Shown here in pieces: positions 1 through 4,878 of a stretch of DNA of 4,878 nucleotides. Positions within the stretch are counted from its first letter, which is position 1. Every line of letters starts with the position of its first letter. Made by a program: the position numbers and the translations under genes. The notes beneath the pieces are model-generated. The model worked only from the letters and a program-made list of their open reading frames with translations. It was not told the origin of the DNA and ran no database searches. Origin of the DNA: a virus (taxonomy: Duplodnaviria > Heunggongvirae > Uroviricota > Caudoviricetes); IMG/VR virus record IMGVR_UViG_2558860274_000011, positions 1-4,878 of that record. The stretch is one strand, 5' to 3'.

Positions 1-914
1 GCTGCGTGAGCAGTACGGGGTCGGACCGCTATGCAGCGAACTGCATATTGCCCCGTCAACGTATTACCACTGTCAGCAACAGCGACATCATCCGGATAAA
101 CGCAGTGCCCGTGCGCAGCGCGATGACTGGCTGAAGAAAGAGATACTGCGCGTATACGATGGGAATCATCAGGTATACGGTGTGCGTAAAGTCTGGCGTC
201 AGTTGTTACGGGAAGGAATCAGGGTAGCCAGATGTACAGTGGCGCGCCTCATGGCGGTTATGGGACTTGCCGGTGTTCTCCGGGGTAAAAAGGTCCGTAC
301 GACCATCAGCCGGAAAACCGTTGCCGCAGGCGACCGCGTAAACCGTCAGTTCGTGGCAGAACGACCTGACCAGCTGTGGGTGGCTGATTTTACTTACGTC
401 AGCACATGGCAGGGCTTCGTCTATGTGGCGTTCATCATTGATGTGTTTGCCGGATACATTGTGGGGTGGCGGGTCTCATCGTCCACGGAGACGACATTCG
501 TGCTGGATGCACTGGAGCAGGCGTTATGGGCCCGTCGACCGTCCGGCACGGTCCATCACAGTGATAAAGGTTCTCAGTATGTATCGCTGGCCTACACACA
601 GCGGCTTAAGGAAGCCGGATTACTGGCATCAACAGGAAGTACAGGCGACTCGTATGACAACGCGATGGCGGAGAGCATCAATGGTCTTTACAAAGCGGAG
701 GTAATACACCGTAAGAGCTGGAAAAACCGTGCAGAAGTGGAACTGGCCACACTCACGTGGGTGGACTGGTATAACAATCGACGATTGCTGGAAAGGCTGG
801 GCCATACTCCTCCGGCAGAAGCAGAAAAAGCTTATTATGCTTCCATCGGAAACGATGATCTGGCAGCCTGAGTTCACAGATAAAACACTCTCCAGGAAAC
901 CCGGGGCGGTTCAT
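1..914 (+). mobile_element. 3' portion of an IS3-family insertion sequence (IS629/IS1203/IS3411-like by recollection), truncated by the window start
   Basis: The transposase OrfB frame is open from the window edge to 871. It is followed by about 40 bp ending ...CCCGGGGCGGTTCA at 914, consistent with an IS3-family terminal inverted repeat (5'-TG...CA-3' ends). Sequence character changes immediately after 914. The exact end and subgroup are from memory and not verified; the left end is outside the window. Confidence 0.8.
2..871 (+). CDS. IS3-family transposase OrfB (DDE integrase-type catalytic subunit), 5'-partial at window edge
   Basis: The frame is continuous from position 2 (LREQYGVGPLCSELHIAPSTYYHC...) into the listed ORF 182..871. 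Translation contains the DDE/RNase-H-fold signatures typical of IS3 OrfB: WVADFTYV (first D), HSDKGSQY (second D) and DSYDNAMAESINGLYK (E). Stop codon at 869-871. OrfA and the frameshift site would lie upstream of the window. Confidence 0.95.
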   Translation: MREQYGVGPLCSELHIAPSTYYHCQQQRHHPDKRSARAQRDDWLKKEILRVYDGNHQVYGVRKVWRQLLREGIRVARCTVARLMAVMGLAGVLRGKKVRTTISRKTVAAGDRVNRQFVAERPDQLWVADFTYVSTWQGFVYVAFIIDVFAGYIVGWRVSSSTETTFVLDALEQALWARRPSGTVHHSDKGSQYVSLAYTQRLKEAGLLASTGSTGDSYDNAMAESINGLYKAEVIHRKSWKNRAEVELATLTWVDWYNNRRLLERLGHTPPAEAEKAYYASIGNDDLAA

Positions 915-1151
915 TGAATCTTATCCAGGCAATTGTGCGTGTCCGTATAATCATGCAAGGAATGGTAGTAGATGTGGTGGACGCAGTGCATATAGCCGTA
1001 CTGGAGGGTATGACGTGGTATGTTATGAAAGTGATGTTACCGATGAAATGATCCGGCAATGGAAGCAGGAGAATGCTGAGTAATCTCTTTTAACTGATTT
1101 GTTGTGCGAGCATTATGTGCAGTTAACGCCTCACTAGCTAGTGAGAGTTCC

Positions 1152-1186
1152 AAAAAGAAACCCCGCAGTTTTTACGCTGCGGGGTT
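1152..1186 (-). terminator. Rho-independent terminator, probably for the hok transcript; usable in both directions
   Basis: Perfect 8-bp GC-rich stem CCCCGCAG (1161-1168) / CTGCGGGG (1177-1184), extendable to 10 bp with flanking A-T pairs. On the minus strand the hairpin is followed by UUUCUUUUU (complement of 1152-1160). On the plus strand it is followed by TTGTTATT, a weaker U-tract. It lies about 90 nt downstream of the hok stop codon. Confidence 0.6.
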
Positions 1187-1272
1187 GTTATTCATGCCTA
1201 TGAGATAGGGTGCCTTATCGGCCTTACCCTAGCAACCGATTGACGGGGAGTTGCCTCCCCGTCGCGGTTTCC

Positions 1273-1413
1273 TTACTGCTTACACTGTAAGAACGCCGCA
1301 AACTCCGCTCCCCAGAAGCTCATCCGTATTTCACACAGCGAACCGTGCAGCATCCAGATGATGAGGATTACCGTCACGCAGAACGTGATGGCCGTAAGCG
1401 ATTTTTGCGACAT
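1273..1413 (-). CDS. hok: Hok/Gef-family type I toxin (small membrane-depolarising peptide), 46 aa
   Basis: Hand translation of the minus strand from ATG (complement of 1411-1413) to TAA (complement of 1273-1275) gives MSQKSLTAITFCVTVILIIWMLHGSLCEIRMSFWGAEFAAFLQCKQ. It has an N-terminal hydrophobic helix followed by the SLCEI motif and a C-terminal AAFLxCK, closely resembling Hok-family peptides as I recall them (HokA-like ...WMIRDSLCEL...ELAAFLACK). A GGAG Shine-Dalgarno lies 8 nt upstream of the ATG. Not in the ORF track because it is under the length cutoff. Confidence 0.8.
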   Translation of the reverse strand: MSQKSLTAITFCVTVILIIWMLHGSLCEIRMSFWGAEFAAFLQCKQ

Positions 1414-1543
1414 AGCGCTTGCTCCTTTGTTGGAGAGGCGCTAACCTATCACTTGCTAAGGTTAGACGGTTAGGGCCTCGGTTAAACAGAAATGTTTTCC
1501 GGGGCCTTTCCACATCTGGCCTTCGGGTATTCCCTCCGACCAT
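1331..1543 (-). CDS. Possible mok-like overlapping reading frame (modulator of killing) covering the hok start
   Basis: A 70-codon frame starting at ATG (complement of 1541-1543) overlaps the first 83 nt of hok in a different frame and stops inside hok. This is the layout expected for mok in hok/sok-type loci, where hok translation is coupled to mok. There is no convincing Shine-Dalgarno at this ATG, and the true start could be an internal GTG. The protein sequence itself is uninformative. Confidence 0.3.
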   Translation of the reverse strand: MVGGNTRRPDVERPRKTFLFNRGPNRLTLASDRLAPLQQRSKRYVAKIAYGHHVLRDGNPHHLDAARFAV

Positions 1544-1603
1544 CAGCCGAAAGGCACCCGCGCGTAATCTATCGCTTTTTTGTTACTCCGGCAATTCTGC
1601 TTG

Positions 1604-1864
1604 TTAATTCTGAGATAAAGGCAAACTCATCTGATTGTTTCCCCTGTGTGAAGCTGGCAGCTCATGCCACGGGATACCTTCTGAAGAGTGAACGCCGGAG
1701 GCGTGTTTTGATGTGAATTTATGGAAAGCTTCCAGTGTTGAGAAGCATACGCCGCATTCCAGATTGTTACACTGGTAATACTTTTGCCGCACGGTGTTTG
1801 AATCATTTTCCGGACGACTGGTGCGGATACGGGCAGATGCGCCACAAAGCGGACAACGGAACAT
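1604..1864 (-). CDS. ogr: Ogr/Delta-family zinc-finger late-gene transcriptional activator (P2 Ogr-like), 86 aa
   Basis: Translation MFRCPLCGASARIRTSRPENDSNTVRQKYYQCNNLECGVCF... shows the Ogr-family CxxC-N24-CxxxxC zinc-binding pattern and the ARxRTSR motif. It aligns by eye with P2 Ogr as I recall it (MFHCPLCQHAAHARTSRYITDTTKERYHQCQNVNC...). A strong GGGAGGT Shine-Dalgarno lies 5 nt upstream of the ATG. The protein is about 14 aa longer at the C-terminus than the ~72-aa family norm. Confidence 0.85.
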   Translation of the reverse strand: MFRCPLCGASARIRTSRPENDSNTVRQKYYQCNNLECGVCFSTLEAFHKFTSKHASGVHSSEGIPWHELPASHRGNNQMSLPLSQN

Positions 1865-1906
1865 AGCGACCTCCCTTAACGTGGTGCTGTCGCTATTCTA
1901 AGTTCC

Positions 1907-2344
1907 TCACTCTGTTTCCGCTATCCATTCCGGGATTTTTGCCTCAAGCTCAATCTGTGTGGTAAAGCCACTGTTATCAATGGTGTGCTCGGCTTTTGCA
2001 ATAATCCAGTCCTGATTATCAATCTCGCTTTTAAATCCTGTTACCGTGCCATGCATTTCGGGGTAGAGTTCTGCGCGTCCACGTGCCAGTGTGATGGAGA
2101 ATGATGCGGCTCCGCGTTGTAGCTGCTGCCACTTTGCCGCCGCTGCGCGTCTTGCTGCCTGCTCGTTCTGATAAGTCTTGCGTAACACAAACACATTGCC
2201 TTCCGCACCTTCCATATAATCACCTTCACGGCTGCTGCTTTTCTCCTTTTTGGGTTTTGGTGGTTTGCGGCGTTTCACGCTGACTTTTTTCTTTTTCCCG
2301 TAATTAAGATCAAGCCAGTAAGCGCGTATCGTGAAGAACTTGTT
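1907..2344 (-). pseudogene. Probable C-terminal fragment of a P2 gpD-like tail protein (prophage remnant); the N-terminal two thirds are absent
   Basis: A minus-strand open frame runs stop-to-stop from 2344 down to 1907 (about 145 codons). The track calls a GTG start at 2278. It ends 42 nt upstream of ogr, which is the conserved P2 gene order D-ogr. A full gpD is roughly 390 aa, so this is at most the C-terminal third. The assignment rests mainly on synteny, since I cannot recall the gpD sequence reliably. Confidence 0.5.
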
Positions 2345-2390
2345 TCATAGTGGTATATTGTGATCATCTAATAGCTCGTGAAATCATTTT

Positions 2391-2408
2391 GGTATCAAAA
2401 AAGATACC
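2391..2408. promoter_or_regulatory. Perfect inverted repeat GGTATC-N6-GATACC, candidate operator just upstream of the XRE regulator gene
   Basis: GGTATCaaaaaaGATACC lies 16 bp upstream of the 2424 start codon, in the divergent intergenic region between the gpD fragment and the regulator. A further TGGTAT copy sits at 2351-2356, next to a TGATCA palindrome. This is a typical arrangement for an autoregulated HTH repressor operator, but it is inferred from symmetry only. Confidence 0.3.
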
Positions 2409-2423
2409 TGTCAAGGTTTTTGT

Positions 2424-2828
2424 ATGAAAAATGATATTGGTCAGCGGTTGCGTGAGGAAAGGGAAAGATTGGGACTTAGTCAAGTTGCCATGAGCGACAT
2501 TGGTGGAGTCAAAAAGCTAACTCAGCTTAGATATGAGAAAGGAGATAGCTTTCCTGATGCTGCGTATTTGGCAGCGCTGTCTCGTTTTGGCCTTGATGTT
2601 CAGTATGTTGTGTTGGGAATTCACTCACCTGAAACTTATAACGATGATGAGCAGGAGTTGATTACTCGCTTTCGAGCAGCTTCGTTAGATGTGAAAAACG
2701 CGGTGATTGGGGCTTTAAAAGGTGCGATCAGTGAAAAGGAAACTCAGCCATCAGGACGTGAGTTAAATATTTCTGGTGGTAATAACCGTATCGCTGGTCG
2801 TGACTATAACGAAACTAAGGGTAGGTGA
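2424..2828 (+). CDS. XRE-family (Cro/CI-type) helix-turn-helix transcriptional regulator, 134 aa; candidate immunity repressor of the element
   Basis: The N-terminal ~65 aa (IGQRLREERERLGLSQVAMSDIGGVKKLTQLRYEKGDSFPDAAYLAALSRFGLDV) matches the XRE HTH consensus architecture. AAGG lies 8 nt upstream of the ATG. It is the first gene of a same-strand operon ending in the integrase, analogous to the P2 C-int arrangement. The C-terminal tail carries the motif GGNNRIAGRDYNE. Confidence 0.85.
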   Translation: MKNDIGQRLREERERLGLSQVAMSDIGGVKKLTQLRYEKGDSFPDAAYLAALSRFGLDVQYVVLGIHSPETYNDDEQELITRFRAASLDVKNAVIGALKGAISEKETQPSGRELNISGGNNRIAGRDYNETKGR

Positions 2829-2843
2829 TAGTAGGGAGGTGAC

Positions 2844-3494
2844 ATGGCCGTCAACTCAAACGGTTCAAACAATCGCGTTGCTGGGCGTGATTTTCACGAA
2901 AAGAATATTCAGATAGAGCGATATGATGGTTCTCATACCGTCAATATCGCAATCCCTTCGAATAATGATGATGACGATCGCCCTTTGCTTAAGGCTCAGC
3001 GTAAGGAGCTAAATAGCTTGGTTGCTGCTATTGCAGAAGCTAGCAATACTGAAGCGTTTATTATTTGGCAAAAAGTACATGCGGAGATTGGTGTAGCTGG
3101 TATTGATGATATGACAGTAAATCAATATAAAACAGCGGAGAGTTTTCTGCATGCAATGCTTGAGCGATGTAAAGATCATGATGCCTGTAAGGCTCTTGTA
3201 AGTTTATTACTACGTAACAGTGAAGACTGTGGACTTCGACAAAAACTTCTGCGGTATTGCCATATCAATTTCGGTACAGGACGTTTAAACGATCTTACTC
3301 GTTCTCAGTTACAGTCTGCATTGTCGTGGTTAGAGCAACAATCGGCATCAAGCCACACAGAGAGTTCGACCTTACCAGAAGTCCGACTTCGTGCTTCAGA
3401 ATTAATCCGACTTTATCCAAAAGAAATAATATTCTTTATCTGCGTAGGGGTTTTGGTAGGCGGTGTCATTTCTAGGGCGTTTTTTAATTTGTAA
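2844..3494 (+). CDS. Hypothetical protein, 216 aa: predicted cytoplasmic domain with a single C-terminal transmembrane anchor; function unknown
   Basis: Strong Shine-Dalgarno GGGAGGT 5 nt upstream of the ATG. The C-terminal segment IIFFICVGVLVGGVISRAFF is a plausible tail-anchor transmembrane helix. An acidic DDDD patch lies near the N-terminus, which also carries the motif SNNRVAGRDFHE shared with the upstream regulator. The gene is AT-rich compared with the IS and hok regions. I recognise no family. Confidence 0.7.
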   Translation: MAVNSNGSNNRVAGRDFHEKNIQIERYDGSHTVNIAIPSNNDDDDRPLLKAQRKELNSLVAAIAEASNTEAFIIWQKVHAEIGVAGIDDMTVNQYKTAESFLHAMLERCKDHDACKALVSLLLRNSEDCGLRQKLLRYCHINFGTGRLNDLTRSQLQSALSWLEQQSASSHTESSTLPEVRLRASELIRLYPKEIIFFICVGVLVGGVISRAFFNL

Positions 3495-3523
3495 TCTTAC
3501 TTGAGCTAAATTGAGGTAATGAT

Positions 3524-3871
3524 ATGAAAGTAAAAAATGTTCAACTATTAGTTACTTTTTTATCTATGTTTTCTTTTTCCGCCGTCGCAATGCCTTTTAA
3601 AACTATTGAACGTGAGAGTTTTAATGGGGTATGGCCATTTAATACTGATGAGGTTCAATTACAGTGTCTTGATGGTAATCCTTATGTGATGAATTTTGAC
3701 GATAATAAGTTATATGCACTTACAGGTTTGGCTCGAATAAAAGGTAAAACATTTGGTGCGTTACCGTTAGATAACAATAATCCATTTTGGCTAGATAATG
3801 ATGCCGCCCCAGGGTTAAAAAAGAGTCTGGGGGATGTCACTAAGGCTGCATTTGATTTATGTGATAAGTAA
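3524..3871 (+). CDS. Hypothetical secreted or periplasmic protein, 115 aa, with an N-terminal Sec signal peptide; function unknown
   Basis: Shine-Dalgarno GAGGT 6 nt upstream of the ATG. The N-terminus MKVKNVQLLVTFLSMFSFSAVA has a basic n-region, a hydrophobic core and an AVA cleavage motif. The mature part has two Cys (possible disulfide) and is rich in N, D and P. The gene is markedly AT-rich. No family recognised. Confidence 0.75.
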   Translation: MKVKNVQLLVTFLSMFSFSAVAMPFKTIERESFNGVWPFNTDEVQLQCLDGNPYVMNFDDNKLYALTGLARIKGKTFGALPLDNNNPFWLDNDAAPGLKKSLGDVTKAAFDLCDK

Positions 3872-3876
3872 CTAAA

Positions 3877-4878
3877 ATGTCGGTTCGTAAGATTCCATCA
3901 GGTAAATGGCTTTGCGAATGTTATCCCTACGGGGCATCGGGAAAACGCATTCGTAAACAGTTTGCGACAAAAAGTGAGGCGCTCTCTTATGAGCGCCGTT
4001 TAATGAATAGTAGAGTTGGAGACGAGTTTCAAGATGGTTCTGGTCCTCGTCTTTCTGAGTTGATTGCTCGTTGGTTTGAGATGTACGGTAAAACCTTGTC
4101 CTCTGGTGCAGAGCGCAAAGTCAAACTTGAGGCGATTTGTTCCAGGCTGGGAGATCCATTTGCTTCTCAGTTTGACAAAAATATGTTTGCTACTTATCGG
4201 GAAAGAAGGCTATCAGGAGAATGGAATCCCAAGGGGAAGAAAAAACTTAGTGAAGCAACCGTTAATCGCGAGCAGTCATATCTACATGCTGTTTTTGCCG
4301 AACTGAAGCGCCTTGGGGAGTGGTCTGGTGAAAACCCCCTGACTGGTATTCGCAAGTTTCGTGAGGAAGAAAAGGAACTGGCGTTTCTGTATGTAGATGA
4401 GATTGAACGCCTTCTGATTGCGTGTGATGAGTCACGGAATAAAGATTTGGGGGTTGTTGTCCGTATTGGGCTTGCGACGGGTGCTCGGTGGAGTGAAGCA
4501 GAAGGATTAAAGCAATCTCAAGTACTGCCCGGTCGAATCACATTTGTTAAAACTAAAGGAAAGAAGAACCGCACTGTACCGATTTCACCTCAATTGCAGG
4601 CTATGCTTCCTAAAAAACGAGGAGCGCTATTTTCACCATGTTATGAGGCTTTTGACGCTGCAATTAAGAGAGCGAAGATCGAGCTTCCTGATGGGCAATT
4701 AACTCATGTGCTACGTCACACGTTTGCCAGTCATTTTATGATGCGGGGCGGAAATATTCTTGTGTTGCAAAAAATACTGGGGCATAGCGATATAAAAATG
4801 ACTATGCGTTATGCGCATTTTGCTCCAGGTCATTTAGAGGCTGCTGTTGAATTGAACCCTTTTGACAATAGAGGGTAA
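3877..4878 (+). CDS. int: Tyrosine site-specific recombinase / phage integrase, P2-Int-like, 333 aa, complete (stop at window end)
   Basis: Translation shows the catalytic signature of tyrosine recombinases: LATGARWSEA (Arg), HVLRHTFASHF (HxxR) and MTMRYAHFAP (Tyr nucleophile). It also has blocks I recall from P2 Int (GKRIRKQF..SEA, RITFVKTKGKKNRTVPIS, GGNILVLQKILGH). The ATG is 5 nt after the upstream stop, suggesting translational coupling. TAA at 4876-4878. Confidence 0.95.
   Translation: MSVRKIPSGKWLCECYPYGASGKRIRKQFATKSEALSYERRLMNSRVGDEFQDGSGPRLSELIARWFEMYGKTLSSGAERKVKLEAICSRLGDPFASQFDKNMFATYRERRLSGEWNPKGKKKLSEATVNREQSYLHAVFAELKRLGEWSGENPLTGIRKFREEEKELAFLYVDEIERLLIACDESRNKDLGVVVRIGLATGARWSEAEGLKQSQVLPGRITFVKTKGKKNRTVPISPQLQAMLPKKRGALFSPCYEAFDAAIKRAKIELPDGQLTHVLRHTFASHFMMRGGNILVLQKILGHSDIKMTMRYAHFAPGHLEAAVELNPFDNRG

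Follow-up and report, generated by a model that had tools for sequence, protein, structure and literature searches.

A probable decay remnant of a P88-like prophage in leuZ of Escherichia albertii KF1

Introduction

How do the two ends of a P2-like prophage come to lie back to back, with only a short control region between them? The question is raised by a stretch of 4,878 nucleotides (positions 1 to 4,878 of the viral record IMGVR_UViG_2558860274_000011; hereafter the window), in which a fragment of tail gene D and the late-gene activator gene ogr read leftward and an operon running from a regulator gene to an integrase gene reads rightward. The first-pass annotation regarded this arrangement as a miniature P2-like element with its central genes removed, and suggested that it could be a domesticated remnant. 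We compared the window with intact prophages. It belongs to the chromosome of Escherichia albertii KF1 (CP007025.1), and it is very probably a defective remnant of a P88-like prophage of the P2 family (genus Xuanwuvirus, Peduoviridae) in the tRNA gene leuZ, produced by a single 32.8-kb deletion as a recent step of decay. The element is a one-off decay product with no sign of a conserved or new system. The KF1 remnant is a fresh instance of a well-known kind, the prophage decay remnant.

Results

Both arms come from a single prophage

In its gene layout, the KF1 locus (L004) matched the window exactly, window position p corresponding to L004 position 12279 minus p. The exact product of the D fragment (D') is on record in one contig, CP007025.1. 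Open reading frame (ORF) listing and family scans recovered all of the ORFs that had been named at first pass, at the same coordinates. Membership in the P2 family was supported at both ends of the element: an Ogr_Delta activator is present downstream of D, in the order D'-ogr as in intact relatives, and a P2-type integrase lies at the opposite end, reading outward, with att direct repeats flanking the element.

We searched 5,426 complete E. coli genomes by megablast. The right arm (2326-4878) was 100% identical, over 2553/2553 nt, to a block annotated as helix-turn-helix (HTH) protein, hypothetical protein, DUF2511 and integrase. The left arm (1180-2328) matched, at 99.9% identity, a block with the annotations Hok, Ogr and D, and its identity to the prophage end held over 914-2328 (99.9%). 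Both blocks were found on the same chromosomes, 29.5-34 kb apart (UTAK-5, C7, O18, EC5931, and O111 and O121 strains), and no record in this collection covered the two blocks contiguously. In the annotation of UTAK-5 (NZ_CP157152.1), a complete P2-type prophage fills the gap between the arms. The interval contains genes for tail sheath and tube, tape measure, baseplate (V/W), lysis, capsid, terminase and portal, together with an S8 peptidase and AAA ATPase cargo pair, a replication endonuclease, small early genes, and Cox-like and Arc-like genes. The parent-type prophage is P88-like, measures 37 kb and is present in hundreds of E. coli genomes, integrated in the tRNA-Leu gene leuZ. The earlier proposal that two ends of one P2-like prophage had been joined by internal deletion is thus borne out, since both arms lie in one prophage in many E. 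coli genomes.

Among phage records, the relatives are classed in Peduoviridae, genus Xuanwuvirus. Phage 520873 (NC_049344.1) matched the right arm only, at 98%, and P88-like phages matched the left arm at 96%. P88 is a P2-like coliphage that is viable and inducible by mitomycin (PMC5285337). The intact leuZ Xuanwuvirus prophages (UTAK-5, phage 520873) share with KF1 the integration site, the att repeat and the gene order at both ends; the shared parts comprise hok, ogr, the 3' end of D, the switch, the repressor, ORF216, DUF2511 and int. Unlike them, the KF1 remnant lacks the central 32.8 kb, carries an inserted copy of the insertion sequence (IS) IS629, and is without excisionase, replication, structural, lysis and packaging functions.

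A single junction at a 3-bp microhomology

When the breakpoints in UTAK-5 were read against the window, the left arm ended in ...AAGCGCGTA and the right arm started with GTATCGTGAAG..., and the junction string of the KF1 remnant was GCCAGTAAGCGCGTATCGTGAAGAACTTG. Among the loci that we fetched, the 43-nt junction string occurred in CP007025.1 only. The left arm matches through 2328 and the right arm from 2326, so that the breakpoints share GTA only. A single GTA is present in the window at 2326-2328; therefore, the arms were joined illegitimately at a 3-bp microhomology. Judged from the aligned breakpoints, it is an illegitimate deletion at this GTA that removed ~32.8 kb (32,844 bp relative to UTAK-5), with one end inside D and the other at codon 8 in the first early gene. 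The first-pass annotation had expected a junction near 2280-2350, and comparison with intact prophages mapped it to 2326-2328.

Of the Arc-like gene, the deletion spared only 7 codons; the Cox-like gene, the genes for replication, capsid, tail and lysis, and the cos site were lost. From D it removed the N-terminal ~two-thirds, leaving 139 codons of an ORF of at most 413 codons. The gene set of an inducible prophage (excisionase, replication, capsid, tail, lysis, cos) falls within the missing 32.8 kb, which would lie between 2328 and 2329. The intact Arc-like (ribbon-helix-helix) ORF encodes 68 aa (L001 19817-20023 of the UTAK-5 locus; phrog_3431, Arc-like repressor, E 1e-28). In KF1, its ATG at 2348 and 7 codons are kept, and they now open a 12-codon ORF that runs out of frame into D (MKQVLHDTRLLA, followed by a stop).

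The origin of the D-like ORF in gpD, on which the deletion proposal had been made to depend, was confirmed by a match to the tail-protein family phrog_12925 (E 7e-70) together with 99.9% DNA identity. Its frame had been taken to end at either 2278 or 2344, and neither choice is right: D-derived sequence reaches 2328, position 2278 is an internal Val codon taken as a GTG start, and the frame is open as far as 2344 by chance. Similarly, the shared divergent region that had been placed at 2279-2423 is real only in part. It is a composite, in which 2279-2328 is D coding sequence, 2326-2328 is the GTA and 2328-2348 represents the first 7 Arc-like codons; the native intergenic control region is 2349-2423 only.

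Two other origins of the junction were considered and rejected. An IS-mediated deletion does not fit, as the end of IS629 (913) lies 1.4 kb away from the junction (2326-2328). A site-specific or att-mediated join does not fit either, as both breakpoints lie within coding sequences and have GTA alone in common.

One pair of att repeats surrounds the whole element

The KF1 element is flanked by a single pair of 137-nt direct repeats that are 97% identical, and both att copies survive. Each repeat comprises the 3' portion of leuZ, the gene for tRNA-Leu(taa), together with the leuZ terminator. The copy on the integrase side begins 107 bp past the window end, and repeat analysis of the source genome locus found no internal att copy in the element. 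Short direct repeats had been predicted beyond the window, and they were found there as this 137-nt pair flanking the entire element. Separate att sites for int and ogr had been named as evidence for two unrelated elements; one pair flanks both genes.

The element sits between leuZ and yecA. A start at 1604, as first assigned, is too far inward, because hok/sok (1273-1559) and a cargo ORF (914-1083) belong to it, and it extends past IS629 (1-913) as far as leuZ, outside the window. Its size is 6.2 kb, or 4.9 kb without IS629. Placed on a circular map of the phage, what is kept forms a single contiguous arc spanning attP, in the order D'-ogr-hok-(small ORF)-att-int-DUF2511-ORF216-repressor-switch. 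The description of an integrase operon stands for int, which is kept, and fails for the excisionase gene, which is gone.

The deletion is recent and known from one genome

No difference separates KF1 from UTAK-5 between the integrase and the last att base, and the host flanks diverge right after it; the prophage was thus acquired recently by horizontal transfer. The deletion is younger than this acquisition. We looked for recurrence of the arrangement in three collections. A 43-nt junction pattern was absent from 185,579 species-representative genomes, and a 29-nt junction pattern was absent from metagenome contigs. In addition, none of the 5,426 complete E. coli genomes contained a mini-element with ogr and this repressor within ~1.2 kb, as searched with a synthetic query of hok-ogr plus repressor-ORF216, for which 80% coverage is reachable only at ~1.2 kb spacing. 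A search with the repressor in the species representatives returned distant relatives only (Gilliamella, Pectobacterium, Yersinia, Arsenophonus and others), none of them bearing on the deletion. No recurrence in independent genomes or lineages was seen in these searches, and the arrangement is known from KF1 alone. These results point to a recent, strain-specific accident, and nothing indicates selection for the arrangement.

Retained ogr and D'

The zinc-finger gene ogr matched Pfam Ogr_Delta at 52.4 bits (cut-off 26.3; E 5e-14). D' matched phrog_12925 and phrog_52 (E 1.4e-46 for the latter), at the C-terminal end of both profiles. Compared with E. coli UTAK-5, D' carries a single-nucleotide polymorphism at 1953 (Ile for Leu); since this is the only difference in the left arm, ogr is identical to the copy in the intact prophage. 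The gene retains ~420 bp of upstream D sequence, with a weak promoter-like site at 2044-2015. In P2, the ogr promoter is located in the D region upstream of ogr. Ogr may therefore be made at a low level, as it reportedly is from the K-12 remnant, because the stretch that holds the promoter in P2 has been kept. The ogr genes of E. coli K-12 and B are reportedly functional, as described by Slettan et al. in 1992.

Lysogeny operon and switch region

The first gene of the rightward operon encodes the HTH regulator. Its matches to Pfam HTH_31, HTH_19 and HTH_3 were below cut-offs, and PHROG regulator and repressor families were matched with a best E of 2.5e-14. In intact prophages this gene reads away from the Arc-like and Cox-like early genes, in divergent orientation. 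ORF216 matched phrog_5825 (E 4e-103), a family of unknown function, and has a single C-terminal transmembrane helix, as in Flk. It also resembled the N-terminal part of the flagellar regulator Flk, through a partial match to NCBIfam PRK10715 (E 8.6e-16) that is far under the equivalog cut-off and through Pfam Flk_N in a precomputed table. The DUF2511 ORF scored 28.3 bits in Pfam (cut-off 21) and matched phrog_2950 (E 1.6e-39). The integrase matched Int_N (E 5e-32) and Phage_integrase (E 2.5e-22) and is 38-56% identical to integrases of P2-like phages.

The retained control region of 75 bp contains a strong promoter-like site on the minus strand (candidate early promoter Pe), a palindrome and, on the plus strand, a candidate repressor-operon promoter Pc. 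The perfect palindrome GGTATC-N6-GATACC (2391-2408) fills the spacer of candidate Pe and is a candidate operator. Direct repeats containing TGGTAT are located at 2345-2356 and 2384-2395. Pc has a poor -35 element and was missed by a simple promoter scan; its -10 hexamer is 26 bp downstream of the point where the deletion ends. The switches of P2 and 186 have lytic and lysogenic promoters that face each other. As read from the sequence, candidate Pe and Pc of the KF1 region would face each other in this way, with a candidate operator in the Pe spacer.

Proposed behaviour of the remnant

The Pc core survives, and expression of the lysogeny operon (repressor, ORF216, DUF2511, int) probably continues. 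The repressor, if made, would probably confer homoimmunity to phages of the same operator specificity. The Arc-like and Cox-like genes are gone, which would leave no element-encoded way out of the repressed state, and immunity would be locked on. Excision of P2 requires Cox. The excisionase has been lost, and the remnant would thus be unable to excise alone; it would also be unable to replicate or to be packaged. Meanwhile, Pe now points through D' into ogr, and a consensus scan of the minus strand from 2379 to 1604 found no terminator-like site; therefore, loss of repression would be expected to drive ogr too. Finally, hok/sok may disfavour further loss of the ogr end.

Several points weigh against reading the window as a remnant of one recent, strain-specific deletion. 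A two-step deletion, or a deletion across two tandem lysogens, would end in a product indistinguishable from that of a single event. The term strain-specific here means unseen in the complete E. coli genomes, the species representatives and the metagenomes, and other E. albertii lie outside these collections. Candidate Pc was called from a single feature, its extended -10 element, and the deletion could have taken an upstream element and so weakened expression of the repressor. In addition, every functional consequence proposed for the KF1 remnant is inferred from its sequence.

Alternative explanations

We considered whether the element could instead be a domesticated module kept by selection, providing superinfection immunity, exclusion functions (ORF216, DUF2511) and a transactivator that interferes with P2-like phages. 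The retained genes are all intact and do not differ from their counterparts in functional relatives, the switch with its candidate promoters and palindrome is kept to within 26 bp of the deletion endpoint, the hok/sok addiction module has been kept, and K-12 likewise keeps an ogr remnant. Set against this, the element is a singleton whose junction was found nowhere else in the collections searched, and the 0-1 substitutions relative to intact prophages leave no time for selection to become visible. The cargo locus between portal gene and replication gene A, as judged on the UTAK-5 copy, has been deleted, and IS629 has already hit the remaining cargo; both facts count against domestication. The suggestion made at first pass that the element is a domesticated remnant is accordingly not supported by a single genome that shows no divergence from intact copies and has lost its excisionase and cargo locus, and we consider domestication unlikely.

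In UTAK-5, the deleted cargo locus (L001 9931-13301) consists of an S8-family peptidase and an AAA ATPase gene, located between the portal gene and gene A. We take this position to be a known defence hotspot of P2-like phages. It is possible that the peptidase and ATPase pair, whose loss in KF1 is judged on the UTAK-5 copy, represents anti-phage cargo.

A further idea, to which we give only a slim chance, is that the deletion accidentally rewired the locus into a repressor-gated late activator, with Pe reading through D' into ogr and towards hok, and thereby made a working anti-phage module. If this were true, a related invader with an antirepressor, or titration of the repressor, would elicit a burst of Ogr from the chromosome. 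Such a burst could mistime the late and lysis genes of the invader, in a manner resembling abortive infection, or activate resident satellites. With the immunity repressor and the genes for the Flk-like and DUF2511 proteins also in place, the remnant would then be an anti-phage module instead of inert debris.

It is very improbable that KF1 has the full prophage and that 33 kb were passed over in a hybrid assembly of short reads. The assembly combined Ion Torrent and Illumina data with 454 reads from an 8-kb mate-pair library, had its gaps filled in silico and included no long reads, which would leave room for such an error; however, the breakpoints share 3 bp only, there is no collapsible repeat, the join is clean and single-copy, and 8-kb mate pairs would conflict with a 33-kb omission.

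Two readings can be dismissed as having almost no likelihood. An old D'-ogr remnant (PR-X-like) might have come to lie beside an unrelated integrase island, the two having separate att sites, and it is true that a D'-ogr remnant can stand alone in K-12 and that G+C differs between the arms (~50% vs ~42%); however, in hundreds of genomes the two arms form the ends of a single prophage that has the same G+C mosaic, a single att pair surrounds both arms, and the junction lies within two phage genes and not at an att site. Equally remote is a P4-like or similar phage satellite that would exploit a P2-like helper by means of int and an Ogr/Delta-type activator; this reading was rejected because the window ORFs include no satellite genes (no primase/replicase, no sid/psu/epsilon-like genes and no cos) and because prophage DNA of the helper type matches all of 914-4878 colinearly, with 99.9-100% identity. 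P4-like satellites do carry a tyrosine integrase and an Ogr/Delta-family activator.

Relation to known elements

The KF1 element resembles P4-like satellites in its tyrosine integrase, its Ogr/Delta-family zinc-finger activator, its small size and its integration at a tRNA gene. It differs from them in lacking satellite replication, capsid-redirecting and cos functions, and in consisting of helper-phage DNA throughout.

The closest precedent for the KF1 remnant is the cryptic prophage PR-X of E. coli K-12, 629 bp in length, which comprises ogrK and the D-fragment pseudogene yegZ. In both, the 3' end of D precedes an intact ogr beside the former attR. PR-X occupies another chromosomal locus, belongs to the lineage of P2 proper and has wholly lost its int/repressor end, whereas the KF1 remnant has kept both ends and both att copies. 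The KF1 Ogr is 42% identical to K-12 OgrK. In 1992, Barreiro and Haggard-Ljungquist reported PR-X as a P2-like remnant. By analogy, the KF1 remnant looks like an earlier stage of a PR-X-type path of decay.

The K-12 cryptic prophages e14, CP4-57, Rac and DLP12 are temperate phages decayed by deletion, which often keep integrase, repressor and toxin-antitoxin or exclusion genes. They are older, mosaic and shared within lineages, in contrast to KF1, where one clean deletion, no sequence decay and one genome were found.

The KF1 remnant thus offers a clean, base-resolved example of decay of a P2-family prophage, with little importance beyond annotation. It illustrates how one microhomology deletion leaves only the arc around attP, a state resembling a precursor of the ogr-D' remnant of K-12. 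It may also serve as a natural minimal construct for immunity by the widespread Xuanwuvirus lysogeny module, for the roles of the Flk-like and DUF2511 proteins, and for trans-activation by a chromosomal ogr.

Features of the window

Table 1. Features read in the window, with strand and the evidence for each (one line per feature).
Feature	Position	Strand	Evidence or remark
IS629 3' part, 913 bp of 1310-bp copy (IS3 family)	1..913	+	98.6% identical to annotated IS629; not original phage DNA
Small cargo ORF, 3' part, hypothetical secreted Cys-rich protein	914..1083	+	Colinear with L002 5737-5904, within WP_071529678.1
GC-rich hairpin with T-runs on both strands, terminator-like, between cargo ORF and hok	1159..1186	.	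Consensus scan only
hok-family type I toxin gene, MokW-like, ogr-end cargo	1273..1413	-	Pfam HOK_GEF, phrog_251
Candidate hok mRNA leader / sok antisense region	1403..1559	-	Rfam sok RF01794, below gathering score
ogr, Ogr/Delta-type C4 zinc-finger late-gene activator, 86 aa, intact	1604..1864	-	Pfam Ogr_Delta; GGAGG ribosome-binding site
Tail gene D 3' fragment (D'), last 139 codons and stop	1907..2328	-	phrog_12925, phrog_52; colinear with full-length D of UTAK-5
Stub of Arc-like first early gene, out of frame into D	2310..2348	-	Read from sequence against intact 68-aa ORF
Deletion junction GTA, 3-bp microhomology	2326..2328	.	Both breakpoints read in intact prophage
Candidate repressor-operon promoter Pc, extended -10 TGgTATATT, facing Pe	2351..2359	+	Read by eye
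Candidate early lytic promoter Pe, TTGACA-17-CAAAAT	2386..2414	-	Promoter scan, 10/12 matches
HTH (XRE-type) regulator, 134 aa, presumed immunity repressor, first lysogeny-operon gene	2424..2828	+	Pfam HTH below cut-offs; PHROG
ORF216, Flk-N-like domain and C-terminal transmembrane tail anchor, lysogeny operon	2844..3494	+	phrog_5825; NCBIfam Flk partial
DUF2511 (YebY-like) protein, N-terminal signal sequence, lysogeny-operon cargo	3524..3871	+	Pfam DUF2511; phrog_2950
P2-type tyrosine integrase, 333 aa, intact	3877..4878	+	Pfam Int_N, Phage_integrase; stop codon is window end

The IS629 copy in KF1 is 1310 bp long and is bounded by 25-nt inverted repeats separated by 1260 nt. Its 3-bp target duplication, TTG, was read against the uninterrupted copy in an intact prophage. 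The window starts within the IS at the frameshift pseudoknot (1-55; Rfam ALIL) and further includes orfB (182-871), with rve domains matched, and the right inverted repeat (889-913). The insertion splits a small secreted Cys-rich cargo ORF and cuts its 3' part off from its 5' part. The insertion of IS629 is an event separate from the deletion.

The hok gene scored 30.1 bits against Pfam HOK_GEF (cut-off 22) and matched phrog_251 (E 2.5e-23), and it is annotated as Hok/Gef in intact prophages. The sok region reached 45.9 bits (E 3.3e-8) against Rfam RF01794, under the gathering score of 59.

Minor observations

The C-terminus of the repressor (ELNISGGNNRIAGRDYNET) and the N-terminus of ORF216 (VNSNGSNNRVAGRDFHEKN) share a motif (window 2760-2905). 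A locus of Pectobacterium colocasium (L011 5908-7031) contains the same pair, an HTH repressor followed by a Flk-N-like tail-anchored membrane protein, among other neighbours, and there, too, a similar Gly/Asn/Gln-rich stretch ends the first protein and begins the second. The HTH repressor and the Flk-N-like protein may represent a conserved two-gene lysogeny cassette (phrog_5825).

Among the intact relatives, the block from the tail sheath gene to U is opposite in strand to D-ogr and lies beside a DNA invertase gene (L002 7995-13149, L003 27238-34782). P2 itself is unlike these Xuanwuvirus prophages, its FI-FII-E-T-U-D-ogr genes being co-directional. The inverted sheath-to-U block is a genus-level rearrangement and no defect of a single strain.

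The record NC_049344.1, named phage 520873, is a predicted prophage excised together with host DNA (yecA) (L003 1-685, 1039-2039, 31966-33746). Its integrase is frameshifted, and IS100 is inserted in its tail sheath gene. Because of the host DNA, the frameshift and IS100, it is a poor reference for an intact member of the group.

Finally, a second, degenerate hok/sok leader motif was seen beside the ogr-side att, outside the window and between leuZ/att and the cargo ORF (L004 13050-13130). It reads ...CTAGGGCCTTGGTTAAACC..., with TTTTGGTGGATGGTAGGAGGAA compared with TTTCGGCTGATGGTCGGAGGGA, and it may represent a decayed second hok/sok locus.

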